From assembly GCA_963823335.1 (NCBI GenBank), contig CAWGLD010000001.1:544001-608000 (forward strand): DNA of 64,000 bases. The letters run 5' to 3'. The DNA is from an uncultured delta proteobacterium (GTDB taxonomy: Bacteria > Desulfobacterota > Desulfobacteria > Desulfobacterales > B30-G6). A model generated the notes under the pieces. That model did not search any database. It saw only the letters and a list, made by a program, of their open reading frames with translations, and was not told where the DNA came from. Below are positions 8,993-31,650 of this stretch, one piece after another. How positions within the stretch are numbered: position 1 is the first letter of the stretch; the number at the start of each line of letters is the position of its first letter. Both the position numbers and the translations under genes were made by a program.

Positions 8993-9021
8993 TTTATAGC
9001 CAAAGCCGCATATAAGGTCAA
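8993..9021 (-). promoter_or_regulatory. Putative sigma70 promoter of the liv/ligase operon
   Basis: Minus strand TTGACC-17 nt-TATAAA. Confidence 0.55.
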
Positions 9022-9172
9022 GTGGCTAATTTACTTTCATTGCATTTTATGACATGCCCGAAGATAATCTTTGGACGGGCAAACCTGTCACGCAGCTGCT
9101 AATGCAATAATTGTGACTACTTTATAGCTATGTTCTAATTTTTGTCAAACAAAATAAAATCGTTACCCAATT

Positions 9173-9823
9173 TTAAAGAATGACCACCTTTTTGACATAA
9201 TTGACGATCTCTTCAGGCTCGTCCATAATCTGAAAAATCTCCATATCCTTCGACGAAACCCGATTGTCTGCAAGAAGCCGGTTCTCGATCCATTCCTTCA
9301 TACCACCCCAGTAATCACTGCCCACCAGAATGATGGGAAGCGGCCGGATCCGGTGGGTTTGAACCAGGGTCACGACTTCGAACAATTCATCGAGAGTTCC
9401 AAATCCTCCGGGCATGGCAATAAAGGCGGTAGCATATTTTATGAACATGACCTTTCGAATGAAAAAATACTTGAATTCGAGTTTCACATTCGCATATTCA
9501 TTCGGTTTCTGCTCAAAGGGCAGATGGATGTTGAGACCCGCCGAAGTGCCACCGGCCGCCGCCGCGCCCTTGTTTGCCGCCTCCATGACCCCGCCGCCGC
9601 CGCCCGTGATGACGGCAAACTTGTTTTCCGCAAACAGACCGGCTATTTTTTCTGTTTTACAATAAATGGGATCCTCCGGGGCAACCCTGGCGGACCCGAA
9701 GATACTCACCGCCGGCCCCAGATCGTGGAGAGCTTCGACGCCATCCACAAATTCCCCCATAATCTTGAAAAGACGCCACGATTCTCCAAGTTTAAAATCA
9801 TCGATAACAAATTGTTTTTCCAT
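9173..9823 (-). CDS. LOG family nucleotide phosphoribohydrolase (TIGR00730)
   Basis: SIFGSAR, TGGGGGVMEA, RK, PGGFGTLDE motif. Confidence 0.9.
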   Translation of the reverse strand: MEKQFVIDDFKLGESWRLFKIMGEFVDGVEALHDLGPAVSIFGSARVAPEDPIYCKTEKIAGLFAENKFAVITGGGGGVMEAANKGAAAAGGTSAGLNIHLPFEQKPNEYANVKLEFKYFFIRKVMFIKYATAFIAMPGGFGTLDELFEVVTLVQTHRIRPLPIILVGSDYWGGMKEWIENRLLADNRVSSKDMEIFQIMDEPEEIVNYVKKVVIL

Positions 9824-9864
9824 TATTTAATTCCTCTATTTAGTTCCTCGAACTTTCTTCAGTT

Positions 9865-10115
9865 TTTTAGGGGTTTAGACTGTAGACTCAATGCCGTTAA
9901 CTTAATGATGTAGCGCAGAGCTTCAGCTCTGCCCGTACACCGTTATAGCAGGCCTAAAGACCTGCGCTACATTGCGTGGAGCCGGGTACCACCTTAAATC
10001 AATGACCTTGACTGTAGACTATAAGGTGCGTCCGCCCCTCTCCAACCCTTGTATCACCCTCAAACCCTCTTATCACCCTTGTATCCCCCTCAAACCCTTC
10101 ACTTCTCCAACCCTG
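9865..10115 (-). repeat. G-tract post-stop element (minus copy) with nested REP doublet
   Basis: Reverse complement has GGGTGATACAAGGG units plus GCACC...AGTCTACAGTC as in the plus-strand copies; GACTGTAGACT occurs on both sides of the REP doublet. Confidence 0.6.
9908..9972. repeat. GTAG-family REP doublet (REPIN-like)
   Basis: GTAG-CGCAGAGC-TTCA-GCTCTGC and an inverted GTAG-CGCAGGTC-TTTA-GGCCTGC; outer arms ATGTAGCGCAG/CTGCGCTACAT. Confidence 0.7.
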
Positions 10116-10142
10116 GTCTCTCCCGGCCGCCCGCCGGGTGGT

Positions 10143-10370
10143 TTAAATCTTTCACCCTTTCCCGTTGTAACCGATAACCACCTTTCCCTGATCGACGATC
10201 ACCGGGACCTTTCGGCCACCCTTTGAATATACAAGCATGCTATTCATCTGTGCCTTGTCCGACAGTACGTCGTGATACTCAACATATCGACCCGCCTTTT
10301 CAAAAGCTTCCCGAGCTTCGGTGGTATAGGGTCAGGTATTTTTCCCGAAAATAATAACTTTTTCTGACAT
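10143..10370 (-). CDS. Glutaredoxin-like Uxx-star selenoprotein, 75 aa, two Sec codons
   Basis: RBS AGGAGG + ATG; MSEKVIIFGKNT-U-PYTTEAREAF...RKVPVIVDQGKVVIGYNGKG-U-KI*; TGA at 10334-10332 and 10154-10152, each followed by a hairpin with G in the loop; absent from the ORF track. Confidence 0.85.
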
Positions 10371-10505
10371 GGGGCCTCCTTGTTGGATAAACATCATATC
10401 CGAAAGAACGGGCACAATTTAGATGCGAATATCTTGTAAACTCAGACAATTATCACAGGAAATATTTTATTAACAGTAAATCCGGCGAATGTCAACGATT
10501 GCGGA

Positions 10506-10534
10506 TTGACAATTGCGCGATGAATTGGTTAAAT
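10506..10534 (+). promoter_or_regulatory. Putative sigma70 promoter of ptsH-ptsI
   Basis: TTGACA-17 nt-TTAAAT with TG extension. Confidence 0.45.
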
Positions 10535-10642
10535 CGGGCGCCTAATAATCAGGCCGTTAGACTGTGGACTTTTAGGCTGCCAGGCTGTAGACTGTCAGCC
10601 ACCTACGGCCTGTTTACCTATAGCCTAATAGACTAATATGTC

Positions 10643-10924
10643 ATGAGAAATACCGGAAAGGCGTTTTCAAAAGATGTCACCGTGGTCAATGATCTGGGAC
10701 TACATGCAAGATCTGCTGCAAAAATTGCCGAACTTGCCAGGGCTGCGACCTCGAAAATCTGGGTGCAAAAAAACGAGAAGAGAGCCGATGCCAGAAGTAT
10801 TTTGGACCTTCTGACACTGGCATGTGACAAAGGATCAAAACTGACCATCGTAATTAATGACAGATCGGACATGCAGACCCTGAACCACATTGTCGAACTC
10901 GTAAAAAATGGATTTGGAGAATAA
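10643..10924 (+). CDS. ptsH: HPr phosphocarrier protein
   Basis: GLHARSAA (His15 site) and DARSILDLL (Ser46 region). Confidence 0.92.
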   Translation: MRNTGKAFSKDVTVVNDLGLHARSAAKIAELARAATSKIWVQKNEKRADARSILDLLTLACDKGSKLTIVINDRSDMQTLNHIVELVKNGFGE

Positions 10925-10930
10925 AACCGG

Positions 10931-12700
10931 ATGTTGGATAACAAGGAACATAAGGAGATTGTATTAACCGGAATCAGCGCCTCTCCCGGAATTTGCATCG
11001 GCAAGGCATACCTGGTGAATCGGGAAGGCGTGGATGTCATCAAGCGATATCAAATCCTTAATTCAGGTCTTCAAAATGAGAAGAACCGCTTTAAAAAGGC
11101 GGTTAAAGAGGCCAAGTCCGAGCTCAATGATATCATCGCCAATATCCCCGAAGACCTGAGTCAGCATTCCGATATTCTCAAATCCCATATGCTGCTCCTG
11201 AAGGACAAAATGCTCTTCGATCGGACCCTCGATACCATCGACCAGGAACGGGTGAACGCGGAATGGGCTCTCAAGAAAGTCGTCTCCGGTGTTATGGCCA
11301 TGTTCCAGGATATTTCCGACCCGTACCTGAAAGACAGGTCGAGCGATGTGGAGCATGTCTCGGAACGCATTATGCTGCACCTGGCAGGGGTCAACTCGGT
11401 CAAAATCGCCGACATTGATAAACGCGTCATACTCGTGGCCCACGATCTTTCCCCTGCCCAGACCAGCCAGATCAATCTTGAGCGTATCAAGGGATTCGTA
11501 ACGGTTCGGGGCGGTATCACCTCCCACACCAGCATTGTTGCCCGAACCCTGGGAATTCCCGCCGTCCAGGGGGTTGCGGATGCTAAAACCCAGATACACA
11601 CGGATGATATCATCATCGTAGACGGCTCACTGGGACGTGTTGTTATCAACCCTTCCGAACAGACCCTGGTTACACATGAAGAACGCCAGGCGCGATTTGA
11701 ATCTTTTCGGGCCAGCATTGCCAGAATCAGCCACCGGCCAGCTGAAACCACCGACGGGCTTCGCATCCGGGTGATGGGCAACATCGAACAACCCGAGCAG
11801 GTGGTATCGGTTATGGATAACGGCGGTGAGGGTATCGGTTTATATCGGACCGAATTTCAATACCTCGCTCTCACAAGATTTCCGAACGAAGATGAGCTGT
11901 TCGACAAGTACCGGGATGTGGTGGAGGTCATGCCTTCGGCACCGGTGACCATCCGGACCCTAGACATTAACGGCGACAAGGCTGTCCACAAGTCAACCTT
12001 GGTGGAATCCAATCCCGCATTGGGGATGCGGGCTATCCGCTACTGCCTGCAGCGTCCGGAAGTCTTTCAAACCCAATTGAGGGCCATCTTGAGGGCCGCG
12101 GCCTTTGGAGATGTGCGGGTCCTTTTTCCCATGATATCCACCTACGAAGAACTCATGGCATCCAAGAGAATGCTGAGCCAAGCCATGGAGACCCTCGACA
12201 AGTCGGGTATTGAATTCAACCGCGATGTTTCCCTGGGCGTGATGATCGAAGTGCCGTCCCTGGCGATCATGGCGGACAGAATCGCCCCTGAAGTCGATTT
12301 TTTCAGCATCGGCACCAACGATCTGATCCAGTATACCATGGCTGTCGACAGGACTAACAAGAATGTGGCCCATCTATACAACCCCCTTCATCCCGCAATT
12401 CTACGGTTGCTGAAGTTTGTTTCCGATGCCGCCAAGGATCACAATGTCCAACTTTTCATGTGTGGCGAAATGGCCGGGGATCCATTCAATCTCCCCATTC
12501 TGATGGGTCTGGGTATTGATGAATTGAGCATGAATCCACAGGCCATTCCCATGGCCAAGAATGTCATCCGAGCACTCTCTGCCGCTGAAACCCGACCGTT
12601 TTTAGATACCGTTCTCATGCAGACCACCGCCGAAGACGTTGAGAAACTTGTTCGTGAAGCATACGGAGACATCATAACCCAGGCAACATCACCGGAATAG
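10931..12700 (+). CDS. ptsI: PEP-protein phosphotransferase (Enzyme I)
   Basis: GGITSHTSIVAR, GIGLYRTEF, DFFSIGTNDLIQY, CGEMAGD. Confidence 0.95.
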   Translation: MLDNKEHKEIVLTGISASPGICIGKAYLVNREGVDVIKRYQILNSGLQNEKNRFKKAVKEAKSELNDIIANIPEDLSQHSDILKSHMLLLKDKMLFDRTLDTIDQERVNAEWALKKVVSGVMAMFQDISDPYLKDRSSDVEHVSERIMLHLAGVNSVKIADIDKRVILVAHDLSPAQTSQINLERIKGFVTVRGGITSHTSIVARTLGIPAVQGVADAKTQIHTDDIIIVDGSLGRVVINPSEQTLVTHEERQARFESFRASIARISHRPAETTDGLRIRVMGNIEQPEQVVSVMDNGGEGIGLYRTEFQYLALTRFPNEDELFDKYRDVVEVMPSAPVTIRTLDINGDKAVHKSTLVESNPALGMRAIRYCLQRPEVFQTQLRAILRAAAFGDVRVLFPMISTYEELMASKRMLSQAMETLDKSGIEFNRDVSLGVMIEVPSLAIMADRIAPEVDFFSIGTNDLIQYTMAVDRTNKNVAHLYNPLHPAILRLLKFVSDAAKDHNVQLFMCGEMAGDPFNLPILMGLGIDELSMNPQAIPMAKNVIRALSAAETRPFLDTVLMQTTAEDVEKLVREAYGDIITQATSPE

Positions 12701-12828
12701 GGGGAAGGGTATGAAGGGACCGAGGGTCCAGGGTTCGAGGGTGATACAAGGGTTGGAGAGTGGCTGAGGGCAGTGAGCGAAAGGCACCTAATCGTCTACA
12801 GTCTAAACCGCTAAAAGGCTAACCAGGG
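12701..12828 (+). repeat. G-tract post-stop element, copy A
   Basis: GGG(N)5-8 tracts then core TGGCTGAGGGCAGTGAGCGAAAGGCACCTAATCGTCTACAGTCTAAACCGCTAAAAGGCTAACCAGGG. Confidence 0.8.
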
Positions 12829-13785: not shown

Positions 13786-14994
13786 ATGAACAACCCGCCT
13801 GCAGTAGCCGTTGTCGGTACATTTGATTCAAAGGGAGAAGAACATCTGTTCCTCAAGAACCGTATTGAAGAATTGGGGCTCCAGGTGTTGACCGTAAATG
13901 TCGGGACCAGAGAACCCATTCCCTTCGAAGTATCCCATGACCTGTATGCGTCCATGAAAAAGGATGCGACACTGGATGACAGTAACCGGGACAAAGCCAT
14001 TCAGGGAATGATCCATGGAGGCATACAGTTAATAAAACAACTGTATCGCGATGGTAAAATCCAGGCCATGATATCCGCCGGCGGTGGCAGTGGAACGCAC
14101 CTCTGTTCCAGTATCATGCGCGAACTCCCTATCGGGGTTCCAAAGGTGATGGTTTCAACCGTTGCCTCTCGAGACATGAAGCACACTGTCGGCACCAAAG
14201 ACATCACCATGATGCACAGCGTGGTGGACCTGCTGGGGGTGAACAGCATTTCCGGAATTATTCTGGACAAGGCCGCAGCAGCCGTTTGCGGCATGACCAT
14301 GAGTCAATGGCGGCCTGCTAAAGACAAAAGACGTATTGCACTCTCATTTTTCGGCTTCATCACAAAATCGGCCGAAGCAGTTAAAAAGGCCCTGGAGGGC
14401 ATGGGCTATGAAGTGATTCCCTTTCATGCCAATGGCACCGGCGGTATGGCCATGGAGGAGCTGGCCGCAGAAGGATATTTTGACGGCATTCTCGATCTGG
14501 CAACCCATGAACTGGCCGATGCGTTGATGGGTGGCTACTGCAGCGGCATCGGGCCCGGGCGTTTCGAGCCGTCTGCGGGGAAAAATATTCCCCGGCTGAT
14601 CACACCGGGAGGTCTTGACTGTGCCGTGCTCGAATTTACTCGCCAGCATGTTCCCGAAGAATACAGGAACCGCAAGGTATTTTATTATGACTTCAGATCC
14701 GCCATTCGCCTCACCCTCGAAGAGAGCCGGGTACTGGCTGAACAGCTGTCTGACAGACTGAACAAGGACGTGAAAAATGTTCATGTCCTGGTTCCCACCC
14801 AAGGATGGTCCGAAGCAGACCAGCAGGACGGACCGCTGTATGACCCTGAAACAAATGCATATCTGGTTAAAATTTTCAAAGAAAAACTGGACAAACGCAT
14901 TCAGCTTCAGGAAATCGACATGCACATCAATGATCCTGGTTTTGCTCAAATTGCGGCCAATGTAATGGATCAGATGGTCAAAGAGCGCAGCTAA
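13786..14994 (+). CDS. Tm-1-like ATP-binding protein (UPF0261), paralog 1
   Basis: GTFDSKGEE, GGGSGT, LPIGVPKVMVST, FHANGTGGMAMEEL, HINDPGFA. Confidence 0.88.
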   Translation: MNNPPAVAVVGTFDSKGEEHLFLKNRIEELGLQVLTVNVGTREPIPFEVSHDLYASMKKDATLDDSNRDKAIQGMIHGGIQLIKQLYRDGKIQAMISAGGGSGTHLCSSIMRELPIGVPKVMVSTVASRDMKHTVGTKDITMMHSVVDLLGVNSISGIILDKAAAAVCGMTMSQWRPAKDKRRIALSFFGFITKSAEAVKKALEGMGYEVIPFHANGTGGMAMEELAAEGYFDGILDLATHELADALMGGYCSGIGPGRFEPSAGKNIPRLITPGGLDCAVLEFTRQHVPEEYRNRKVFYYDFRSAIRLTLEESRVLAEQLSDRLNKDVKNVHVLVPTQGWSEADQQDGPLYDPETNAYLVKIFKEKLDKRIQLQEIDMHINDPGFAQIAANVMDQMVKERS

Positions 14995-15913: not shown

Positions 15914-15927
15914 AGAACTTTAAAAAA

Positions 15928-16110
15928 GGGTTTGAGGGTGATACAAGGGTGGTACAAGGGTTCGAGGGGGATAAAGGGGTTCGAGGGTCAGAGGGGGATA
16001 CAAGGGTTGGAGGGTGGCTGACAGCAGTTAGCGAAAGGCACCTAATAGTCTACAGTCTAAACCGCTAAAAGGCTAACCAGGGGTGGAGGGTGGTACAGGG
16101 GTTGGAGGGA
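15928..16110 (+). repeat. G-tract post-stop element, copy B (longest)
   Basis: About ten GGG tracts, then the core TGGCTGACAGCAGTTAGCGAAAGGCACCTAATAGTCTACAGTCTAAACCGCTAAAAGGCTAACCAGGG. Confidence 0.8.
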
Positions 16111-16342: not shown

Positions 16343-17554
16343 ATGCAGAAACCAAGCGTACTTCTTGTGGCAACAATGGATACCAAGTTCAGGGAAGCCG
16401 GCTTCATAGAATCCTGTCTCAAAGAATCCGGCTGTGCGGTCACGGTTATGGATGCCGGGATTCGTGGCGATAGCCCCGTACCTGTCACAATTACAAGACA
16501 CGAAGTCGCCCGGGCCGGCGGAAAAACATTATCGGAAATTCAATCCATAGGCCACGAAGGCGAAGCTCTCAACATGATGCTCATGGGCGCCTGCAGGATT
16601 GCGGACGAAATGATCGCCAAGGGTGCCGTCATTGGTGTCATAAGTCTGGGCGGCTCCATGGGAACCACACTCGGTACGGGTGTCATGCGCCGATTTCCCA
16701 TCGGGGTCCCAAAGGTGATGATCTCCACCATGGCCTCCAGGGATACCCGCACGTTTGTGGGAACAAAAGACATTCTTATGCTGCACGCCGTCTGTGATCT
16801 CTCGGGCCTCAACCGGTTTTCGAGAAAAATACTCCACAACGGCGCCATGGCCCTCTACGGCATGGTGTCCCGGAGCCGGAAAGACATTTCATCAGACAAA
16901 TCCATGATCTTTATTTCCACTCTGGGAACCACCGAGAAATGTGTTCAGGAGATACGCGCCTCCCTCGAAAAACAGGGTAAGGAAGTCGTGGTCTTTCACA
17001 CGGTGGGTTCCGGCGGCAGAGCCATGGAAGAACTCATCGCCTCAGAACCGGTTGAAGCCCTGGTGGACCTCTCCCTGCATGAAATGGCGGATCATCGTTT
17101 CGGAGGGGATTACGATGCAGGACCTGACAGGGGTTCCGTGGCATTGAAAAAGGGGATTCCGGTCGTCCTGGTACCCGGAAATATCGATTTTCTTGTGTCA
17201 GGACCGCTGGAGCAGTCCCTGAAAGATTTTCCCGATCGGCCGTACCATGTTCACAATACAGCCATTACGGTTGTACGAACGACCCGTGAAGAGATTGAAA
17301 GCATTGCCCGGCATGTAGGGGATTATTGTAATGCCGCCCCTGGACCGTACACCCTGGTAATTCCCATGAAGGGATTTTCAGCCTTTGACGCCATAGAGGG
17401 GCCGCTTCACGACCCCCAGGCACCGACCTGCTTTGTCAAAGCCCTGGAATCCCAGCTGTCCGACACATCACGGATGCACACCCTGCCATACCACATCAAT
17501 GATTCCGGCTTTTCTGCAGCTGTGATTGAAAAGCTCCAAGAACTGTTGCCCTGA
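16343..17554 (+). CDS. Tm-1-like ATP-binding protein (UPF0261), paralog 2
   Basis: ATMDTKFRE, GGSMGT, FPIGVPKVMIST, FHTVGSGGRAMEEL, HINDSGFS. Confidence 0.88.
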   Translation: MQKPSVLLVATMDTKFREAGFIESCLKESGCAVTVMDAGIRGDSPVPVTITRHEVARAGGKTLSEIQSIGHEGEALNMMLMGACRIADEMIAKGAVIGVISLGGSMGTTLGTGVMRRFPIGVPKVMISTMASRDTRTFVGTKDILMLHAVCDLSGLNRFSRKILHNGAMALYGMVSRSRKDISSDKSMIFISTLGTTEKCVQEIRASLEKQGKEVVVFHTVGSGGRAMEELIASEPVEALVDLSLHEMADHRFGGDYDAGPDRGSVALKKGIPVVLVPGNIDFLVSGPLEQSLKDFPDRPYHVHNTAITVVRTTREEIESIARHVGDYCNAAPGPYTLVIPMKGFSAFDAIEGPLHDPQAPTCFVKALESQLSDTSRMHTLPYHINDSGFSAAVIEKLQELLP

Positions 17555-19942: not shown

Positions 19943-20890
19943 TCACCTCTGCTGGGCCAGTATCTTCAACATCAAGGCCCCGATATCCTGTGGTCGCATA
20001 TCTTCGGAGCGTAATTTTTTCAAGACTTTTTCAAAAGCCCTGGCAGGCATGGACAAGGGTTGCTTTTTCAGGTAGGCAAAACTGACGTCAAGATAAATCT
20101 GTTGTCCTTTGAGGGGAATCGTGGCCAATTTTCCTTCTTCGATTTCCGCAGCCACACAGGCCTTCACAAGAATGGAAACCCCCTCCCCTTTCTGAACCAG
20201 CTGTTTGATAAATTCGTTGTTACTGGTTTCCATGAGAACATTGGGTGTACAATCATGCTGTTTAAAAAGCATGTTCACGCGCTTTCGGGTTCCTGAACCT
20301 GTTTCCTTCATGATCAGCGGCTCTTTAGCCAGGTCCTGGGGGGAGATGTCTCCTTCGGCTGTCAGCGGGTGATTTACCGGAACAACAAGAATCAGCTCTT
20401 CCTGACTGAAAGGAACAAATGTAACCGCTGGATTCTCTGATGCCTTTGCAATGACAGCCACTTCATTCTTGAATTCCAGGAGGGTGTTGGTCATGTCCAG
20501 TGAGCTGCCCTCATCCAGATGAATTTTGATGCCGGGGTAGTCTTTATGAAAGCTGGAGAGCAGCGACGGCATAAAATAGCGCGCATAGGTCTTGGTGGTT
20601 CCCAGCCTCAGAACACCCCGTTTCAGCTCCTTCATGTCATCGATGACGTTCTCGATTTCTTTTTCATATTGAAAGATTTTCTGGGTGTATTCATACAGTG
20701 TCTTGCCTTCTTCCGTCAGATGTATCTGGCGTCCCTTTTTCTTGAACAGCTTCAGGTTGCATCCTTCTTCCAGTGCCTTGACCTGGGCCGTTACAGCCGG
20801 TTGTGTTACGAAGAGCATGCCTGCCGCAACCGTAAAACTGGCATGCTTCGCTGCATAATGAAAGGTCCTGAGCTGGTTGAAGTTCAACAT
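19943..20890 (-). CDS. LysR-family transcriptional regulator
   Basis: MLNFNQLRTF...SFTVAAGMLFVTQPAVTAQVKALEE HTH; start trimmed to ATG 20890. Confidence 0.92.
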   Translation of the reverse strand: MLNFNQLRTFHYAAKHASFTVAAGMLFVTQPAVTAQVKALEEGCNLKLFKKKGRQIHLTEEGKTLYEYTQKIFQYEKEIENVIDDMKELKRGVLRLGTTKTYARYFMPSLLSSFHKDYPGIKIHLDEGSSLDMTNTLLEFKNEVAVIAKASENPAVTFVPFSQEELILVVPVNHPLTAEGDISPQDLAKEPLIMKETGSGTRKRVNMLFKQHDCTPNVLMETSNNEFIKQLVQKGEGVSILVKACVAAEIEEGKLATIPLKGQQIYLDVSFAYLKKQPLSMPARAFEKVLKKLRSEDMRPQDIGALMLKILAQQR

Positions 20891-20983
20891 GAACGTCTTC
20901 CTTTTTGAAGTATCTCCCAACAAGTCACGGGGCAAGCGCGCGCTGTCGTGTTTCAAAACTTTTATTTATGGAAAATAAATCAC

Positions 20984-21207: not shown

Positions 21208-23064
21208 ATGCCGGACGAAAAAGGAAGATTTCCAGATCCCCACGAGATTCAGGTTCCCCCGGAACTTGAGGGATGGGAGGAGATGTATCCATCACATCAC
21301 CTCTTTTCCAAGGACAGAGCAGACTGGGAAAAAGCGCAATTCTGGTATCAGGACAAGATCCATGCACCCGAGCCGGTGCCACCCCTGGATCTCATTTTTC
21401 AGGAGGCGTGGCAGATCTCCCTTTCCCAGTACACTACCCGGGTATTTTGTATTCCACCTGCCCAGGGAATCGCCCAGAGAATGGTGGGCTGTTACCTGTA
21501 CATCTGTGCCATTGCGCCCCCACCCGACGAAATTATCGGCCAGAAAGCAGCCCTGTTCGAAAAACGCGTTTTCTATGTATTTGAGCACTATGATGAACTG
21601 TGGGAAAAATGGCTCACAAAGTTCAAGGCGCTGGGCCAGGAAATGGAGGACGTGAAGGTCCCGGCGGAGTTGCCGAAATTTGTTCCGGATGATGAAGTGC
21701 TGCCCGCGCCTAAGGGCTACTACGATTCATACACACTCCTCGAATCTTTCGACAAACTTGTCAACCAGATGTTCAAGGGCTGGCAATATCATTTTGAAAT
21801 GCTCAATCTGACCTATCTGGCCTACCTCATGTTTGCCGATGTAGCCAGAAAACTTTTCCCGGGAATCAGTGAAAGCGCCATCGGCAAGATGGTGGCCGGC
21901 GCATATGTTTCCATGTTCAAACCGGAGGAGGAATTGTGCCGACTCGCCAGACTGGCACATTCGACCCAGGCCGTGGCGGATATTTTAAGGAGCGACAACA
22001 CGGCGGCGGAAAAAATCGCCACGCTTGAAAAAATATCTGAAGGTAAAAACTGGCTGGCGGAATATGAAAAATCCAAAGACCCCTGGTTCTCTGTGTCCTG
22101 CGGCAGCGGCTGGTTTCATCATGAAGGCAGCTGGACAACCAACCTCGATATTCCTTTCAGCTATCTCAAGAGTTATGTGGACCGTTTAGCCAATGGAGAA
22201 ACCATCGAACGTGCCCTGGAGGAGATCGGTAAAGAACGGGACAAAATCGTCGAAGAATACAAAAATCTCATCCAGACCGACGAAGACAGACAATCCTTCG
22301 ACGGTGCCTACAACACCATCCGAACCATCTATCGATATGCCGAGGATCATCTCTTCTGGGTGGAACATTGGTTCCATACCATTTGGTACAGAAAAATCCG
22401 GAAGATCGGGAAACTGCTTGTCGACAACGGGATGATCGATCAAGTGGATGACATTTTCATGTTCAACCGTTACGAAATTCCGCAACTTCTGACCGAAGTT
22501 TCAACGGCCTGGGCCCTGGGCGTAGACATACCCATGAGAAGTTCCCACTACAAGGCCAAGGTTGTCAAGCGTCGAAGCATTCTGGAGGCCGCCGGAAAAT
22601 GGAATCCGACACCGGCACTGGGTGTTCCGCCTGCAGAAGTGGCCGAGCCGTTTACGATCATGCTGTGGGGCATCACCACGGACAGGGTGCAGGAATGGCT
22701 CAAGGGCGTCGATGCGGCCCAGGAAGGCGATGTTTCCGAAATCAAAGGCTTTGCTTCTTCCGCCGGTGTAGCTCAAGGACCCGCAAGGGTACTGAAGTTA
22801 CTCAAGGACATCCTGGATCTGCAGCCCGGAGAAGTACTGGTTTGTCCCTCAACCAACCCGTCCTGGGCACCTGTTTTTACCAACATCAAAGCAGCCGTTA
22901 CCGACATTGGCGGTCTCACAAGTCATGCGGCCATCGTCTGCAGAGAATACGGTATTCCGTCCGTCACGGGGACGGGTGTGGCTACGTCTGTTATCAAGAC
23001 CGGCGATATCGTCAAGGTAGACGGCGATACGGGTTTGGTAGAGGTAATCGAACGGGCAGGGTAA
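21208..23064 (+). CDS. ppsA: Phenylphosphate synthase subunit A-like (PEP-utilising His domain)
   Basis: [35 protein letters not shown] and phospho-His motif [15 protein letters not shown]; matches my recollection of Thauera PpsA along its length. Confidence 0.85.
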
Positions 23065-23101
23065 TCCGACACCTACGTTGCCCGAACAACCATTTAAGCA
23101 T

Positions 23102-23134
23102 GTTTGGAGCGGTGTAACCAACGCCGCTCCAAAC
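23102..23134. terminator. Hairpin between ppsA and ppsB
   Basis: GTTTGGAGCGG...CCGCTCCAAAC inverted repeat. Confidence 0.5.
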
Positions 23135-23156
23135 TTCCTAAAACCCGTAAACGGGG

Positions 23157-24233
23157 GTGGAAATGGAGTATGTTCTTACTTTCCTGGAGGTAGACAAAAA
23201 TTCACTGTCGCTGGTTGGCGGCAAAAACGCCAGTCTGGGAGAATTGATAAAGGCGGACATTCGCGTGCCTCCCGGTTTTGCCGTAACCACGGAGAGTTAT
23301 CATAAATTTATCACCGAAACCGGGATCAGGGACAAGATTTTCCAAATACTATCGGACATGAAGCCGGGAGACATTGCCGCCCTGAATGCCGCCAGCGAAA
23401 GTATCCAGACGCTGATACAGGGTTCAGCCCTGTCGGAAGACATCCGATCGGCCATCGAAAAAGCATATGCGGAGCTCTGCGCCGACTGCCGGGTAATCGA
23501 CATGCCGGTGGCGGTTCGTTCAAGCGCTACGGCCGAAGACCTGCCCACGGCCAGCTTCGCCGGTCAACAGGACACCTATCTCTGGATTCAGGGTCACAAA
23601 GATGTCGCGGAAAAGGTTCAGCGCTGCTGGGCCAGCCTGTTTACACCCCGGGCCATCGATTATCGTGTAAAAAATAAGTTTGCACATGAGAAAGTTCTGA
23701 TCAGCGTAGGGGTTCAGAAAATGGTGAACTCCAGAGCTGCCGGGGTTATGTTTACATTGAACCCGACCGACGGCGACCTGTCCAAGGTCGTTATCGAAGG
23801 CAGCTGGGGGCTGGGGGAGACTGTCGTTTCCGGCTCCGTCAATCCGGACAAGTTCGTGGTAGACAAGGTGGTCATGGAAACTTCAGACAAGACCATTTCC
23901 ACCAAACACATCGCCTGCGTATACGACCCGCAGGCAGGTAAGGTCGTGGATGCGGATGTGGATGAAGACATGCAGTGCAAATGCTGTCTGGAGGATATGG
24001 AAGTCAAGGCCCTGGTGAGCATGGGCAAGTTGATCGAACGGCACTACAAGCGCCCCATGGACATCGAATGGGCCATCGATAAAGACCTCGATTTCCCCGA
24101 GAATATCTTTATCGTGCAGGCGCGGCCGGAGACCGTCTGGAGCCAGCGTAAGACACGCTCGCTAATCGGCGCTAAAAGCGGCTATCAACTTTTGATGGAA
24201 CAGGCCATGAAACGGATCAAGATACCCAGTTAA
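23157..24233 (+). CDS. ppsB: Phenylphosphate synthase subunit B-like (PEP-synthase ATP-grasp domain)
   Basis: VGGKNASLGEL, AVRSSATAEDLPTASFAGQQDTYL, DIEWA, QARPETVWS; lacks His and PEP domains. Confidence 0.85.
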   Translation: MEMEYVLTFLEVDKNSLSLVGGKNASLGELIKADIRVPPGFAVTTESYHKFITETGIRDKIFQILSDMKPGDIAALNAASESIQTLIQGSALSEDIRSAIEKAYAELCADCRVIDMPVAVRSSATAEDLPTASFAGQQDTYLWIQGHKDVAEKVQRCWASLFTPRAIDYRVKNKFAHEKVLISVGVQKMVNSRAAGVMFTLNPTDGDLSKVVIEGSWGLGETVVSGSVNPDKFVVDKVVMETSDKTISTKHIACVYDPQAGKVVDADVDEDMQCKCCLEDMEVKALVSMGKLIERHYKRPMDIEWAIDKDLDFPENIFIVQARPETVWSQRKTRSLIGAKSGYQLLMEQAMKRIKIPS

Positions 24234-24239
24234 AAAATA

Positions 24240-24388
24240 GGGTTCGAGGGTCCGAGGGTCCGAGTGGCGAAGGGTGGCTGACGGCAGTGAGCGAAAGGCA
24301 CCTGCAGCCTATCGTCTAAACGCCTAAAAGAAGTGCTTGGTTCTCAGCTGAAATTAACACTAAAACCTAAAACCTAAAACGAAAATAC
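24240..24388 (+). repeat. G-tract post-stop element, copy C, plus CTAAAAC heptamers
   Basis: GGGTCCGA octamers, core TGGCTGACGGCAGTGAGCGAAAGGCACCT, then ACTAAAACCTAAAACCTAAAAC. Confidence 0.75.
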
Positions 24389-24491
24389 TGCACTAACGTC
24401 TATACCGCAAAAAAAATCGTTTGGTAAAAATCATATGGGTTTTGTTTGCATGTTTGTTCAATTCTAACCAATAAAGGAGGACTGTTGCTCT

Positions 24492-25898
24492 ATGAAGAAC
24501 ATGAGAGATTTTATCACAGAAGGTGAGAAAAAGGGCCTGTGTAAACGAATTTCAGCTGAAGTCGATTGGAATCTGGAGTTGTCGCATATCGCCAAACTCA
24601 ATGAAGAGCAAAAGGGTCCGGCGCTGCTGTTTGAAAATGTGAAGGACTATGACACACCGGTGATTACCAGTGTCTGTACCACCCCTGAAAGACTGGCATT
24701 TATCCTTGGTCAACCATTGGATTCCACGCTTGTAGATCTCTACGCGCACTGGGCCAAGCTGGGGGACAACCTGTTGGAGCCCAAGTATGTGGAAAAAGCG
24801 GATGCGCCATGCAAAGAGAATATCATCACCGGGGACGACATTGACCTTTTCAAATTCCCCGTGCCGCAGTGGTATCCTCTGGACGGGGGCCGTTATATCG
24901 GGACCGCTCATTTCTTCATCAGCAAGGATCCCGAAACCGGCTGGGTAAACCTGGGAACCTACAGGGCTCAGCTATTGGGAAAAGACAAGATTGGCACCCA
25001 GTTTATCAAGGGCAAACATGCCGACATCATGCTGAAGAAATATCAAGCCATGGGGAAACCCATGCCGGTGGCTTCAGTAATCGGGTGTGATCCTCTGCTT
25101 TTTATCCTCGGTGCAGCACGCGTTTCAGCTTTTACTTCAGAATACGATGTGGCAGGCGCCCTGCGCGGTGAGCCTGTAGAAGTCGTTAAAGGAGAAATCG
25201 TCGATCTGCCCATTCCGGCACATGCCGAGATCGTGCTCGAAGGAGAAGTGGATGCCGACAAATTTATGGAAGAAGGACCGTTCGGTGAATATACCGGGTA
25301 TTATTCCGGCGTTGGTACGGATCCACGCAATTTCATGGATGTCCAATGTGTCACCCATCGTAACAATCCGATTCTCTGGGGAACCACCGTCGGCCGGGCC
25401 GTTACAGACACGCACATGACCATGGCACTGTCATATGGGGCCACCCTTTGGCAACAATTGTTGGCCATGAAGATTCCAGGCTTGAAAGCGGTTTACTGCC
25501 CGCCGGAAGGCTCCGGACGGTTTTTGGCCATCATCTCCATGAAGCAGATGTATCCCGGGCATGCAGACCAGGTGCTCACGGCTGCCATTTCAACGGAAAT
25601 GGGTGCCTATGGTCTGAAAACCGTCATCGTCGTGGATGAGGATATCGACCCCTGGGATATTCCCCGGGTCCTGTATGCCTTGAGTTTCAGATTCCAGCCC
25701 AACCGCAGTCAGGTCATCAAGAGAGGGCGGTCCACACCACTGGATCCGTCTCTGCCCATCAATGCGCGGGAAATTACCGGTAGACTTTTGTTGGATGCCA
25801 CCATACCCTATGACTGGAAACACAAACCGATTCCCATTGAACTGGACGCGGAAATGGTGAAAAGAGTCAAGTCGCGATGGTCTGAGTTGGGGTTATAA
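24492..25898 (+). CDS. ppcB: UbiD-family carboxylase, phenylphosphate carboxylase beta-like
   Basis: EVDWNLELSH, GPALLFE, DGGRYIGT, EGPFGEYTGYY, KRGRSTPLDP; resembles PpcB as recalled. Confidence 0.85.
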   Translation: MKNMRDFITEGEKKGLCKRISAEVDWNLELSHIAKLNEEQKGPALLFENVKDYDTPVITSVCTTPERLAFILGQPLDSTLVDLYAHWAKLGDNLLEPKYVEKADAPCKENIITGDDIDLFKFPVPQWYPLDGGRYIGTAHFFISKDPETGWVNLGTYRAQLLGKDKIGTQFIKGKHADIMLKKYQAMGKPMPVASVIGCDPLLFILGAARVSAFTSEYDVAGALRGEPVEVVKGEIVDLPIPAHAEIVLEGEVDADKFMEEGPFGEYTGYYSGVGTDPRNFMDVQCVTHRNNPILWGTTVGRAVTDTHMTMALSYGATLWQQLLAMKIPGLKAVYCPPEGSGRFLAIISMKQMYPGHADQVLTAAISTEMGAYGLKTVIVVDEDIDPWDIPRVLYALSFRFQPNRSQVIKRGRSTPLDPSLPINAREITGRLLLDATIPYDWKHKPIPIELDAEMVKRVKSRWSELGL

Positions 25899-25932
25899 AA
25901 ATAAAAACGCTCAATTTAGGAGGAGTTAGGTA

Positions 25933-26448
25933 ATGTCCGATACCGACATGATAGAAGACAAAAAGGTTCTGGTGGTTGATGATGAACAGGACATTCTGGA
26001 GGTTTTGGAAGAACTGCTGGATATGTGCCATGTGACAACAGCGTCGACCTTTGATCAGGCTAAAACCCTGTTGGAAACCCAGGCCTTTGACATCGCGATT
26101 CTCGATATCATGGGGGTTGACGGATATCGCCTGTTGGAAATTGCCAACAAGAAAAAGATACCCGCAATTATGCTTACAGCGCATGCATTCTCTGCCGGCA
26201 ACCTGGTAAAGACCATCAAAGAGGGTGCCTATGCCTATGTTCCCAAAGAAGAAATCGGCCGGATCGCCGAGTTTCTTTCAGATGCCTTGAACGCCAAAAA
26301 ACAAGGCAAAAATCCCTGGCGCGTCTGGGAGGAAAGACTGCCGTCATCCTATTTTGAAAAAAGATGGGGGGCGGCCTGGAAGAATTCGGACCGGGACTTC
26401 TGGAACAAATTCAGGGAAAGCATCAAAACGCGGGATGGGAAAAAATAA
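25933..26448 (+). CDS. Response regulator receiver protein
   Basis: VLVVDDE, AILDIMG, MLTA, YVPK, with a Trp-rich C-terminal extension. Confidence 0.85.
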   Translation: MSDTDMIEDKKVLVVDDEQDILEVLEELLDMCHVTTASTFDQAKTLLETQAFDIAILDIMGVDGYRLLEIANKKKIPAIMLTAHAFSAGNLVKTIKEGAYAYVPKEEIGRIAEFLSDALNAKKQGKNPWRVWEERLPSSYFEKRWGAAWKNSDRDFWNKFRESIKTRDGKK

Positions 26449-26527
26449 CGCAGTTATCCCCAACCAGGATAAACCGGTTGGAGTGAAGCGAAAACCCTGG
26501 CTTGCCGGGGAAAAGATAAGACCTTTT

Positions 26528-26607
26528 ATCACGAAAGCACGAAAGTACGAAAACACGAAAATTTTCATGGTCTTTTTCGTGTTTTTCAGATTTCGTGTTT
26601 TCGTGAT
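26528..26607. repeat. Inverted array of CACGAAA(A/G) octamers
   Basis: Four direct units followed by 3-4 reverse-complement units, forming a long imperfect hairpin. Confidence 0.75.
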
Positions 26608-26705
26608 TGCTTATATTTTTTTGCCACATAATTTACAAATTTTACAGTGCTCTGTGTCATTTGGACTTTATAGATAAGCATGAAAAAGAAAGAAGGAGGT
26701 TTGAA

Positions 26706-28361
26706 TTGAAACCGATTCGTTACCAGAAAGATATGATCGATGAATTTGTGACCGATGGTTACTGGACCGAAGAGCTTTTCTATGACTTCTGGGATAGAAA
26801 TGCCCGGGAAATCGGTAACCGGGAAGCGCTGGTAGACTCGAAATATCGCCTGACATGGTCTGAAGCCAAAAAACTGGTGGACGCCATGGCCATTTCCTGG
26901 GTGGAAATGGGAATTCCCAAACATTCCCGGGTCATCATTCAATCGCCCAACAGTGTCTACGGGTTTCTCGCCCGAATCGCCTGTGAGAGGGCCGGACTCA
27001 TTTCTCTTACGGTCTATCCATACCTTCGTCAGAGGGAATTGGAGTACATGCTGGAGAAAACAGAGGCCAAGGCAGTCGTTATTCTGAACATCTACAACAA
27101 ATTCAATTATCTAAAAATGTACACGGAGCTCCAGAAACAGTTTCCCCATCTAAAATATTTTTTTCTTTTCGACGATGACGTTCCGGACGATGCGCCTGCG
27201 GGTACCTATTCGCTGCCCCGGATGACCCAGCTCCGGGCAGAAAAACCAGTGGACGCATCCGTGCTGGCAGAACGCAGGTTGGACCCGTTCTGGAACATCT
27301 CCCTGCTCACGACCACATCCGGCACCACCGGTATCCCCAAGCTGGTGGAGTGGCCCACCGCGCCCCGCGTCTGCACATCCAAAGGCAGATGCGCCATCTG
27401 GAACCTCAACCGTGACGACACCACCATGGCCATCGCCCCTCATGCCGGCGGAGCGGCTGGAACACTGACGTATTTCGCCGCCCCCATTGCCGGTGCCAAA
27501 ACCGTGATGTTGGAGGAGTTTTCCGGCGAAGGCGCGCTGGCGCTCATCGAAAAAGAGAAAGCTACGGCCATCGGTGTGGTTCCCACCCACCTTATACGGA
27601 TGCTGGAGGCCGACGTCTCCAAATACGATCTGAGTTCTCTGCGGTTTATCCGCTCGGCCGGCGGGTATTTATCACCCCAGGTGGCCGAAGAAGCTGAAAA
27701 CGCATTTAAGGCAAGCATTACCAGCGACCTTGGGACCCAGGACAAGGGATCGGTGTCCGGGTGCAGCGTAGAGGATTCAAAGGATCTTCGCCGCAGAACC
27801 GTCGGCCGCATGCTTCCGGGCAACAAGGTGAGATTGCTGGACAAGGACACCGGCAAAGAAGTGCCCGAGGGCGAACCCGGAGTTCTCTGGCTCAGGGGCC
27901 CCCACGCCCCGGCAGGATACTTCCGGGACGAGGAATTGACCGCCACGGTGTTCGACAAGGACGGATGGACCACCACGGAGGATATCGTCAAATTCGATCA
28001 GGGCTGTCTGTGGATTCTGGGCCGGGCCAAGGACATGATCATCCGGGGAGGACAGAACATCTATCCTGCAGAGATCGAGGGCCTGCTCAATGATCATCCC
28101 GGGGTATCGTCTGTAGCGGTTGTGGGGTATCCGGACCGGGAGATGGGTGAACGGTGCTGTGCCTACGTCATCCCCAAGCCTGGTGTGGATTTTTCCTTTG
28201 ACGAAATGGTTTCTTTTCTCAAGGGGAAAAATATTGCCATGTTCAAACTTCCGGAACGGCTCGAAATTGTGTCTGAGTTTCCCCTGGTGGGAGATTCGGG
28301 CAAGGTCAACAAGGAAACCTTGAAGGAACAGATCAAGGCATTGGTTGAGAAGGGGAGCTAA
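26706..28361 (+). CDS. Aryl/acyl-CoA ligase (EntE/cyclohexanecarboxylate-CoA ligase-like)
   Basis: TSGTTGIPK, GRAKDMIIRGGQNIYPAEIE, FKLPERL, SGKVNK; start TTG 26706 after RBS AGGAGG. Confidence 0.85.
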   Translation: MKPIRYQKDMIDEFVTDGYWTEELFYDFWDRNAREIGNREALVDSKYRLTWSEAKKLVDAMAISWVEMGIPKHSRVIIQSPNSVYGFLARIACERAGLISLTVYPYLRQRELEYMLEKTEAKAVVILNIYNKFNYLKMYTELQKQFPHLKYFFLFDDDVPDDAPAGTYSLPRMTQLRAEKPVDASVLAERRLDPFWNISLLTTTSGTTGIPKLVEWPTAPRVCTSKGRCAIWNLNRDDTTMAIAPHAGGAAGTLTYFAAPIAGAKTVMLEEFSGEGALALIEKEKATAIGVVPTHLIRMLEADVSKYDLSSLRFIRSAGGYLSPQVAEEAENAFKASITSDLGTQDKGSVSGCSVEDSKDLRRRTVGRMLPGNKVRLLDKDTGKEVPEGEPGVLWLRGPHAPAGYFRDEELTATVFDKDGWTTTEDIVKFDQGCLWILGRAKDMIIRGGQNIYPAEIEGLLNDHPGVSSVAVVGYPDREMGERCCAYVIPKPGVDFSFDEMVSFLKGKNIAMFKLPERLEIVSEFPLVGDSGKVNKETLKEQIKALVEKGS

Positions 28362-28364
28362 AAC

Positions 28365-28460
28365 AGGGTCCAGGGGTGATACAAGGGTGGTAAGAGGGTT
28401 CGAGGGTGGCTGACGGCAGTGAGCGAAAGGCACCTAAAAGCCTACAGTCTAAAGCCCTAA
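28365..28460 (+). repeat. G-tract post-stop element, copy D
   Basis: GGGTGATACAAGGG... core TGGCTGACGGCAGTGAGCGAAAGGCACCTAAAAGCCTACAGTCTAAA. Confidence 0.8.
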
Positions 28461-28523
28461 TTTTCTGAACTAGGTTCATCGGCTTTTCGCTAGTGTCCGT
28501 CCAAAAATAGAGATTTTCGCGTT

Positions 28524-29735
28524 ATGCCAAAGCAGATCCTGATCATATCCACCCTGGACACCAAAGGGGTGGAAACACGTTACTTGAAGCAGAAAATCGA
28601 GGCGCTGGGTCTTTCCGCCATCCTCATGGATCTGTCCATGCGCGCTGACGTTAAACTGCCGGCTGAAATAACCAATGCCCAGGTGGCTGAAGCAGGCGGC
28701 AGCAGCATCGAAGAAATCGGGCAATCCCGTGAACGAAGCAAGATCACGAAAATCATGACGTCCGGGGCTTCCAAGCTGGCAAGGCAGTATTATGGCGAGG
28801 GCAGAATCGACGGTGTAATTGCAATGGGCGGATCCACCGGCACCCTGATGGCATCCGATGTGATGCGGTCCCTCCCTTTTGGTGTTCCCAAGACAGTTAT
28901 ATCTTCTACGGCAGCACTTCCCGGTCTTTCCACCAGGTATATCGGAACAGGGGATATTACGCTGTTTCATTCGGTAATCGAAATTTCCGGTCTTTCCAAT
29001 TTGTTAAAAAACGTGATGGACAGGGCAGCACACGCCATCACCGCCATGGTTCATGAGACAGTCACACCCCTGGTTACGGGCGAGGGAAAAGCCATCGCCC
29101 TGACCATGCTGGGTCCCTGTGAAAAATGTGCCAGCTTTGTCCGTATTGCCCTTGAAAAAGAAGGCTATCAGGTCATCGGCTTCTCCGCAGCCGGTGTGGG
29201 TGATCGGGCCATGGAACAGATGATCGCCGAAGGGTTTTTTCAGGGTGTCATCGACCTGGCGCCGGGTGGGGTCGGGGAGCATCTTTTCGGTTTTATGAGA
29301 GATGCAGGCCCGAATCGACTGGAAAATGCAGGCAGGATGGGAATTCCAATGATTGTTTCCACCTGCAGCGTCAATCACATGACACCCTCAAAGTCCAGAT
29401 ACCAAGCCGAATACCACCAGCGCCGCAAATATGACCTGGATAAATTTCGCACCTGGATACGATTGTCGCCGGAAGAGCTGCAGAGCGTTGCGCAAGCCTT
29501 TGCCGCGAAATTGAACAAAGCCGGCGGCCCGGTAAAATTCCTGATACCGCAGAATGGTTGGTCTTCGGTGGACCAGCCCGGCAATCCGACCCACGATCCA
29601 CAGGAGGACCGCATCTTCGTTGAGGTGCTGCAACAAAACCTGCGCCCGGACATCGACATCCTGGAAATACAGGCCAATATGGAAGACCCGGTCTTTGCCC
29701 AGGCTGTTGTTGAAACGGCATTGCATCTATTTTAA
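28524..29735 (+). CDS. Tm-1-like ATP-binding protein (UPF0261), paralog 3
   Basis: STLDTKGVE, GGSTGT, LPFGVPKTVISS, GDRAMEQM. Confidence 0.88.
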   Translation: MPKQILIISTLDTKGVETRYLKQKIEALGLSAILMDLSMRADVKLPAEITNAQVAEAGGSSIEEIGQSRERSKITKIMTSGASKLARQYYGEGRIDGVIAMGGSTGTLMASDVMRSLPFGVPKTVISSTAALPGLSTRYIGTGDITLFHSVIEISGLSNLLKNVMDRAAHAITAMVHETVTPLVTGEGKAIALTMLGPCEKCASFVRIALEKEGYQVIGFSAAGVGDRAMEQMIAEGFFQGVIDLAPGGVGEHLFGFMRDAGPNRLENAGRMGIPMIVSTCSVNHMTPSKSRYQAEYHQRRKYDLDKFRTWIRLSPEELQSVAQAFAAKLNKAGGPVKFLIPQNGWSSVDQPGNPTHDPQEDRIFVEVLQQNLRPDIDILEIQANMEDPVFAQAVVETALHLF

Positions 29736-29908
29736 TTGACCATATGCCTCTTGAAAAAGTAGCTCCTCTGGGATAAAGAATCGATTCTTTATTCTGCTGG
29801 GAAGCGAGGATGCTTGGAGACTGGGATGCTGCTGTCCGTTTTTATCTCTCAGCCACCCTCGAATCCTTGGCCTCTGGAACCCTTTTTCCTAAAAAAAGCG
29901 AGGTACCC

Positions 29909-30514
29909 ATGTCCAAACGAATTGTCATAGGAATATCCGGTGCAAGCGGTGTGACGTACGGTGTGCGCCTGCTCAGCCTGCTGAAAGACAGTGATTATGA
30001 AACGCACCTGATCTTGTCCGAATCCGGCAAACTCAATATCAAGATCGAGACAGCCTACACACCCGAGGAAGTCCAGGCCATGGCCAGTCATGTGTATGAC
30101 CACAAAGACATGGCCGCCGCTCTGTCATCCGGTTCTTTCCTGACCCAGGGCATGGTGGTGGTCCCGTGTACCATAAAGACCTTGTCCGGGATTGCCAACT
30201 CATATAACGAGAACCTTCTTGTGCGGGCCGCCGATGTCACATTAAAGGAAAAACGCAAACTGGTTCTGGTGGTGAGAGAAACGCCCCTGCACCTCGGTCA
30301 CCTGCGCCTCATGACACTGGCGGCGGAAATGGGAGCCCTTATTGTACCGCCGGTGCCCTCCTTTTATCATCAACCCGAAACCCTCCAGGACATCATCGAT
30401 CAAACCATCGGCAAGGTATTCGATTACCTCGGTATCGAACACGCGCTTTTTAATCGCTGGGGTGAGAACAAAAGAATGCCCAGGACACCCGATGCCTCAT
30501 TAAAAGCACTTTAA
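29909..30514 (+). CDS. ubiX: Flavin prenyltransferase
   Basis: IGISGASG, SSGSF, PCTIKTL, RAADVTLKEKRKLVLVVRETP, PSFYHQP; start ATG 29909. Confidence 0.93.
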   Translation: MSKRIVIGISGASGVTYGVRLLSLLKDSDYETHLILSESGKLNIKIETAYTPEEVQAMASHVYDHKDMAAALSSGSFLTQGMVVVPCTIKTLSGIANSYNENLLVRAADVTLKEKRKLVLVVRETPLHLGHLRLMTLAAEMGALIVPPVPSFYHQPETLQDIIDQTIGKVFDYLGIEHALFNRWGENKRMPRTPDASLKAL

Positions 30515-31259: not shown

Positions 31260-31268
31260 GACATAGCC

Positions 31269-31649: not shown

Positions 31650-31650
31650 C

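Follow-up and report, generated by a model that had tools for sequence, protein, structure and literature searches.

A glutaredoxin-like gene with two UGA codons

The window analysed in this study is a stretch of 64,000 nucleotides (nt) from an uncultured delta proteobacterium of the Desulfobacterales (GenBank assembly GCA_963823335.1, contig CAWGLD010000001.1, positions 544,001 to 608,000). On its minus strand lies a short gene for a glutaredoxin-like protein whose reading frame contains two TGA codons, designated TGA1 and TGA2, each followed by a small hairpin resembling a selenocysteine insertion sequence (SECIS). A first-pass annotation of the same DNA had proposed a hidden gene of 75 amino acids (aa) with a ribosome-binding site, the motifs UPYT and KVPVI and the ending G-U-K-I-stop, and had placed a hairpin about 13 nt after each UGA, the second one within the 3' untranslated region (3' UTR). 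As shown in Table 1, all of these elements were found in the sequence at the places described.

Table 1. Positions of the gene, its two TGA codons and the associated signals in the window
Feature	Position	Strand	Basis
Glutaredoxin-like coding sequence with two predicted selenocysteines, 75 aa (ATG 10370-10368, TAA 10145-10143)	10143..10370	minus	translation with TGA read as U
Shine-Dalgarno-like AAGGAGG, with a 4-nt spacer to the ATG	10375..10381	minus	inspection of the sequence
TGA1, codon 13, at the position of the glutaredoxin active-site nucleophile (U-P-Y-T)	10332..10334	minus	translation and codons of homologues
TGA2, codon 73, with two more codons before the stop (G-U-K-I-stop)	10152..10154	minus	translation and codons of homologues
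SECIS-like hairpin 1, in the coding region, GAAGCU-CGGGA-AGCUUU	10303..10319	minus	homologue census and covariation
SECIS-like hairpin 2, in the 3' UTR, CCCGGC-GGGCG-GCCGGG	10122..10138	minus	homologue census and covariation

With TGA read as selenocysteine (Sec, U), the product is MSEKVIIFGKNTUPYTTEAREAFEKAGRYVEYHDVLSDKAQMNSMLVYSKGGRKVPVIVDQGKVVIGYNGKGUKI, and the coding sequence ends with TGA AAG ATT TAA (10154-10143, minus strand). Hairpin 1 starts 12 nt past TGA1 when its G-U closing pair is included (the core AAGCU-CGGGA-AGCUU starts at 13 nt), and its loop lies at nt 18. Hairpin 2 starts 13 nt past TGA2 with its loop at nt 19. It begins 4 nt past the TAA, its first base being the fifth, and hence lies outside the coordinates originally given for the gene, 10143..10370. 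The gene was absent from the list of open reading frames (ORFs) because genetic code table 11 yields only a 31-aa fragment of it (10152..10247). Ordinary gene callers miss such a gene or cut it to a piece of 31 or 72 aa. Scanning of positions 9800-10700 for promoters and terminators found none.

The translated protein was compared with curated families. It matched the NCBIfam model NF041114, 'UXX-star selenoprotein family 1', with 100.2 bits against a cutoff of 72 (E 5.7e-29), its residues 5-74 aligning with positions 1-69 of the 70-position profile. A match was also obtained to the parent, NF041212 ('Uxx-star family glutaredoxin-like (seleno)protein'; 75.9 bits, cutoff 66). The sister models scored below their cutoffs: NF041211 (family 2) gave 44.2 against 100, NF047338 (family 3) 38.0 against 97, and NF045501, for the HUGP/GUXX-star fusion selenoprotein, 34.2 against 325. 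These three share the small domain and the C-terminal architecture, and the window protein aligns end to end with the model or with its C-terminal domain; the fusion form differs by an extra N-terminal domain of about 160 residues. With family 1 itself the window protein has in common a glutaredoxin-like core of about 70 residues, the active-site U or C and the C-terminal U-x-x-stop, and no difference was detectable. The window protein is therefore a member of the already curated UXX-star family 1, and it is of a kind already known. This bears out the mention of Uxx-star proteins in the first-pass annotation. The family is known by curation, and our literature search found no experimental characterisation of it.

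The glutaredoxin fold was supported by several lines of evidence. The Pfam Glutaredoxin model PF00462 was matched with 37.5 bits (cutoff 22.9). An AlphaFold2 model built on 80 aligned sequences had a predicted local distance difference test (pLDDT) score of 95.6 and a predicted template modelling (pTM) score of 0.86, with the order strand-helix-strand-helix-strand-strand. Its tail, residues 61-75, had a mean pLDDT of 96 and short strand segments at 68, 71 and 73-74. The top Foldseek matches were glutaredoxins, namely 3ic4 with a template modelling (TM) score of 0.76, Clostridium cGrx1 (7c12 and 7c10) and Escherichia coli Grx3. A profile search of Protein Data Bank sequences found E. coli Grx3 at E 8.5e-07 and aligned KVP with the TVP cis-proline of Grx3. 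The glutaredoxin fold, the UPYT active site and the KVPVI cis-proline motif named in the first-pass annotation were thus all borne out.

The protein shares its fold with E. coli Grx3 (3grx, 1fov) and A. fulgidus Grx-1 (3ic4) at TM 0.75-0.76. As in classical dithiol glutaredoxins, the nucleophile stands at the start of helix 1 and the cis-proline keeps its position, K-V-P being residues 54-56. In contrast to their C-P-Y-C with a resolving Cys, however, the window protein has U-P-Y-T, and Thr16 is invariant in the 80 sequences. Classical glutaredoxins also have a last helix after a G-G motif, whereas the window protein has in its place a short tail with residue 73 and ends soon past strand 4, 8 residues beyond Gly67. 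The alignment of Grx3 with the window protein stops at residue 65 of 82.

Conservation of the UGA codons and their hairpins

To define the relatives of this gene, one genome per species was scanned. This gave 329 pattern matches, of which 168 encoded a relative, and the best 80 were kept. One locus, L061, was dropped as its contig ends before the C-terminus, and the window was added, so that the 80 sequences used throughout comprise the window and 79 related loci. The genome bins of the relatives are labelled Desulfobacterales, Desulfobacteraceae, Thermodesulfobacteriota/"delta proteobacterium", Acidobacteriota, Vicinamibacterales, Brocadiales, Planctomycetes and a few others. All 80 sequences matched both NF041114 and NF041212 at E<=1e-10. 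Their invariant residues include K10, U/C13, P14, T16, P56 and U73, and no other Cys is conserved among them. More distant homologues were sought with a profile search of 1.84 billion representative proteins, which gave 1125 matches at E<=0.001 and 137 at E<=1e-10. From 150 listed matches 36 were fetched, mainly those reaching the end of the profile, so that this sample is biased towards complete C-termini.

Codon 13 was TGA in 52 of the 80 sequences and a Cys codon in 28 (TGC 20, TGT 8). By its codons, this position is a classic Sec/Cys pair. The occurrence of hairpin 1 followed the same division. A stem of at least 4 base pairs (bp) with a 5-nt loop exactly 18 nt past the codon was present in 43 of the 52 TGA forms and in none of the 28 Cys forms. 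The hairpin spans codons 18-23, and its conserved core, GCU-CG[G/U]GA-AGC, is made of the codons for A-A-R-E-A. The Cys13 forms, with A-A-R-[D/E]-D at this place, cannot form it.

For covariation in hairpin 1, the 52 TGA forms were aligned without gaps and compared with 500 shuffles. The four inner pairs were kept among these forms, with the changes falling at synonymous (wobble) sites. Pair 18-30 was GC in 18 sequences, AU in 12, GU in 12, UG in 2, CG in 1 and unpaired in 4; pair 21-27 was UA in 40, CG in 6, UG in 1 and unpaired in 2. The covariation score was 0.238 compared with 0.127 after shuffling, and none of the 500 shuffles scored as high. Sliding the partner by +1 gave a similar score of 0.247, but the paired cells fell to 65.6% from 73.8%. 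The outer two of the six pairs seen in the window occur only in its closest relatives. Three loci from Acidobacteriota bins with TGA at codon 13 (L048, L070 and L075) lack the common hairpin 1 and show other pairings there by eye. In L075, for instance, a stem of 6 bp (GCCGCC/GGCGGC) encloses one of 4 bp, and L070 has a long-range stem of 9 bp. These alternative pairings may represent a second SECIS design.

Decoding of TGA2 is a less obvious claim than that of TGA1, yet the comparison supports it better. Codon 73 was TGA in 80 of 80 sequences and never TAA or TAG, and in all 80 exactly two sense codons lie between it and the stop. That final stop was TGA in 30, TAA in 27 and TAG in 23. Because codon 73 is invariably TGA and the next stop may be any of the three codons, codon 73 does not behave as the true stop of a 72-residue protein, a reading in which only UGA1 would encode Sec and hairpin 2 would stabilise or terminate the transcript. 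The two residues past position 73 are G-V in 45 sequences, R-V in 14, K-I in 5 and one of ten rarer pairs in the others. The last residue is always Val (72) or Ile (8), written with six codons (GTT, GTC, GTG, GTA, ATT and ATC). Since this conserved residue shows synonymous change, the stretch past TGA2 appears to be translated. TGA is admittedly a normal stop in the window, where it ends 16 of 52 large ORFs (TAA 23, TAG 13), and gene calls under table 11 do end homologues at TGA2 (P0004, P0007, P0009, P0011, P0013 and P0015).

Cys at the position of residue 73 was found in 15 of the 36 fetched distant homologues, and these sequences continue past it. In 12 of them the Cys is in the same column, and in 3 it is one column to the left, where the loop is one residue shorter. 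Several end in C-x-[VILF]. The remaining fetched sequences were 12 with W at the TGA positions, 4 that stop at ...G-T before the TGA and 5 of other forms. Exchange with Cys, which the first-pass annotation had named as a check on its proposal, was thus seen at both positions.

Hairpin 2 was surveyed as a perfect stem of at least 4 bp with a free energy of -6 kcal/mol or lower and a loop starting 15-23 nt past the UGA. An equivalent was present in 73 of 78 distinct 60-nt downstream sequences, compared with 7.0% of 7800 dinucleotide shuffles. When the origin was moved to eight other offsets, the count was 0-8 of 76-78. The homologous stems have 5-10 bp, with several pair types at every stem position. 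GC-rich hairpins often stand directly behind a stop codon at the 3' end, which would suit a TGA2 that terminates translation. However, a U-rich tract followed the hairpin in 0 of 73 cases, the first or second loop nucleotide was a G in 73 of 73, the distance from the UGA to the loop kept to 15-23 nt (at least 16 nt in 72 of 73), and the terminator scan was negative. We consider it very unlikely that TGA2 is the true stop.

Pairs in hairpin 2 were counted for an eight-pair helix on a plain MAFFT alignment that had not been fitted to the structure. Paired cells made up 76.4% compared with 62.8% after shuffling (none of 500 shuffles as high) and 23.6-44.9% when the helix was slid. There were 108 cells changed on both sides, against 52.7 in the shuffles, and the covariation score was 0.384 against 0.185. 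No consensus pairs came from RNAalifold when it was run on this MAFFT alignment, which covers the 80 regions downstream of TGA2; this we attribute to the varying spacer length and the gappy alignment. Whether the hairpins exceed chance was answered differently by the two approaches: no from the single sequence, and overwhelmingly yes across the 80 homologous sequences.

Predicted recoding and redox chemistry

From these results both UGA codons are almost certainly decoded as Sec, in a double-selenocysteine gene of the UXX-star glutaredoxin fold. To this reading, taken together with the recoding mechanism and the redox chemistry set out below, we assign a probability of about 0.85. The Sec/Cys exchange and the conserved, covarying hairpins speak for it, in agreement with the central proposal of the first-pass annotation. 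A reassigned genetic code is excluded because TGA is the ordinary stop of 16 of the 52 large ORFs. A further proposal is that the locus is no selenoprotein gene, but a glutaredoxin pseudogene decayed by two nonsense mutations or a gene with TGA as Trp (codes 4 and 25). Public entries with W at both TGAs would have it so (P0002, P0003, P0005, P0006 and P0008, and in addition 12 of the 36 fetched). As far as sequence evidence goes, this proposal can be set aside as refuted. Nonsense mutations would not recur at two fixed codons in 52 (codon 13) and 80 (codon 73) of the 80 sequences, which come from several phyla. The ORFs ended by TGA are well supported, and under table 11 many window ORFs match families over their full length. 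Position 13 is exchanged for Cys and not for Trp, and some W-translated entries run through the terminal TGA into non-homologous sequence (for example P0012, P0019 and P0033). Such entries appear to be artefacts of gene calling under a code with TGA as Trp and misrepresent the family.

In the proposed mechanism, SelB with bound Sec-tRNA would recode each UGA under the direction of a separate small SECIS hairpin of the bacterial type. SECIS 1 would act from inside the coding region and SECIS 2 from a place wholly in the 3' UTR, since no more than two codons separate UGA2 from the true stop. The bacterial SECIS model in the excerpt of PMC13188914 that we used has a loop of 3-9 nt whose first two nucleotides include at least one G, an upper stem of 4-16 bp, a distance of 16-37 nt from UGA to loop and an energy of -7.5 kcal/mol or lower. 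Hairpin 2 agrees with all four of these rules (5-nt loop GGGCG, 6 bp, 19 nt, -12.4 kcal/mol), and hairpin 1 with the first three (5-nt loop CGGGA, 6 bp including G-U, 18 nt). A scan of positions 9000-11500 against Rfam at E<=10 gave three chance-level matches and nothing SECIS-like.

Reviews usually state that bacterial SECIS elements lie within the translated region, according to the excerpt of PMC11431864 that we used. The same excerpt describes active thioredoxin reductase produced in E. coli with a minimal 17-nt SECIS after the stop codon, put there because the Sec of this enzyme adjoins the C-terminus. This precedent, in which a SECIS downstream of the stop directs Sec insertion as proposed here, makes it mechanistically acceptable for a SECIS to stand outside the reading frame. 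The placement was engineered for thioredoxin reductase, whereas it would be natural in the window gene.

Residue 13 occupies the position of the nucleophilic Cys of glutaredoxins, at the start of helix 1 and opposite the cis-proline loop. As the second Cys of the CxxC motif is replaced by the invariant Thr16, Sec73 in the C-terminal tail would be the only conserved redox partner. The likeliest chemistry is therefore that of a thiol/selenol oxidoreductase, which would cycle between two selenols and an Se-Se bond, or form an Se-S bond in the 28 relatives with Cys13. Such a pair would recall the redox tail at the C-terminus of mammalian thioredoxin reductase. Residue 73 is Sec in every one of the 80 sequences, whereas residue 13 may be Sec or Cys, so that Sec73 is probably the essential and indispensable residue.

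Several points weigh against this reading of the gene. Hairpin 1 is missing in its simple form from 9 of the 52 TGA forms, and 5 of the 78 sequences have no clear hairpin 2. On its own, hairpin 1 is weak in the window (-3.8 kcal/mol), and the single-sequence folds of both hairpin regions are no better than shuffles (z -0.67 to -1.54). The unconstrained minimum-energy fold of the TGA1 region uses a different local pairing and leaves hairpin 1 unused. When hairpin 1 is forced, the energy is -13.4 kcal/mol, which is 1.1 above the unconstrained minimum, and the lower stem pairs the UGA region itself; only with this UGA-containing lower stem does the hairpin reach -7.5 kcal/mol. The window has no tRNA gene, and selA, selB and selD are absent from its 54 large ORFs. 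A literature search found no report of experimental selenium incorporation for the UXX-star family. The excerpts of a 2026 review that use the term 'UXX-star' present these families as predictions, its table naming UXX-star family 2 and the fusion form with a citation of Haft and Tolstoy 2025, and the main text of the BSepDB paper does not mention the family. No reductase or substrate partner is conserved across phyla in the neighbourhoods of the 80 loci. As for the bond itself, that Sec13 and Sec73 may form a diselenide is something we infer purely from the sequences.

The two Sec residues might instead be ligands of soft metals or metalloids (for example Hg, As or Cu) in a chaperone or scavenger and not an Se-Se redox pair, as is suggested in the excerpts of the 2026 review. 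Two neighbouring selenolates, one in the active site and one on a flexible C-terminus, would make a good chelator, and the lack of a conserved reductase partner nearby would fit such a role; on the other hand, metal-resistance or transport genes are not conserved beside the gene in the 80 loci, and the protein has the fold, cis-proline and UxxT motif of a thiol oxidoreductase. We regard metal binding as unlikely, though less so than the readings in which one or both UGA codons are not recoded.

Within the preferred oxidoreductase reading, a more specific proposal can be put forward tentatively, at somewhat less than even odds: Sec73, on a mobile tail of three residues, would be the catalytic centre in place of residue 13 and swing onto Sec13 or Cys13 to form an Se-Se or Se-S bond, and hairpin 2 would be a natural, phylum-spanning SECIS that acts wholly from the 3' UTR. 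The protein would then be a stand-alone analogue, in 75 residues, of the thioredoxin reductase tail. Mammalian thioredoxin reductase has a Gly-Cys-Sec-Gly tail with Sec within three residues of the C-terminus, as in the window protein. It belongs to an unrelated family, however, and its partner residue is adjacent, whereas that of the window protein is 60 positions off; the likeness in redox chemistry is drawn by analogy. A SECIS of this kind would also depart from the usual placement in the translated region as given in the excerpt of PMC11431864.

The comparative figures leave the classification unchanged, as curation already covers the family together with its U-x-x-stop architecture. They sharpen the targets for further work, namely the invariant Sec73, the Sec/Cys exchange at position 13 and the presence of hairpin 1 only with TGA13. 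If both codons are recoded, the window protein would be among the smallest with two selenocysteines, and one short message would carry two differently placed SECIS elements, one of them wholly in the 3' UTR. Such a message would offer a compact natural test bed for the handling by SelB of a UGA three codons from the end.

Gene neighbourhood and other observations in the window

A TIGR00730/LOG-like gene lies downstream on the same strand in 39 of the 80 loci, and 33-35 of the 80 have genes for HPr and PtsI upstream in divergent orientation, all of them loci of the Desulfobacterales type. Loci of other phyla have unrelated neighbours; those in Acidobacteriota loci are ThyX-like, thioesterase, MMPL and LolA-like genes. 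The neighbourhood was therefore rejected as evidence of a functional partner, since TIGR00730 and HPr/PtsI are confined to loci of the Desulfobacterales type.

The spacer just downstream of the selenoprotein gene is filled with degenerate G-rich repeats, GGGTGATA[C/A]AAGGGTT[T/G]GAGGG on the strand of the gene, whose units are about 11-19 nt apart (10039-10124). They recur in other intergenic spots, near 12739-12800 and 15927-16110, and similar repeats follow the homologous gene in the loci L001, L003 and L004. Between the selenoprotein gene and the TIGR00730-family gene there is also an inverted repeat at 9908-9972, with 25-nt arms that are 80% complementary and a gap of 15 nt. Direct repeats of the CTGTAGACT type were found at 9880, 10012, 10562 and 10585.

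A scan of the window for frames crossing a TGA gave weak candidates and no second convincing selenoprotein gene. Two frames with a TGA were considered individually. The first is a SelO/YdiU-family protein adenylyltransferase gene at 44414-45910 (minus strand; 558.6 bits on NF000658), which ends F-C-G-T-TGA and has sixteen further codons between this TGA and the next one. Its C-x-x-TGA end resembles the C-x-x-U end of eukaryotic selenoprotein O. No hairpin follows the TGA (z +0.84), and it is probably an ordinary stop. The second, at 30561-31664 (minus strand), holds a 4Fe-4S ferredoxin domain and DUF5981 (methylene-tetrahydrofolate reductase C-terminal) in one frame with a single TGA between them (EKK-TGA-GYV). 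The two domains may belong to separate genes side by side or to a single gene that is read through. A Sec codon was rejected here, as the TGA has no Sec-like context and no Cys next to it.

The LysR regulator gene at 19943-20956 (minus strand) had as its best model NF040786, 'selenium metabolism-associated LysR family transcriptional regulator', with 220.8 bits, below the cutoff of 250. The gene lies beside a cluster resembling those of anaerobic phenol metabolism, and the name of the model is probably not informative for it. This cluster, at 21208-30514, encodes phenylphosphate-synthase-like phosphoenolpyruvate (PEP)-utilising proteins, a UbiD protein like the beta subunit of phenylphosphate carboxylase, UbiX and an acyl-CoA ligase. 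An aspartate ammonia-lyase-like ORF at 58776-59789 (plus strand) covers only profile positions 159-474, and the frame upstream of it is broken by TGAs; it may be truncated or decayed. Three paralogues of the PRK02399 family were found at 13786-14994, 16343-17554 and 28524-29735.

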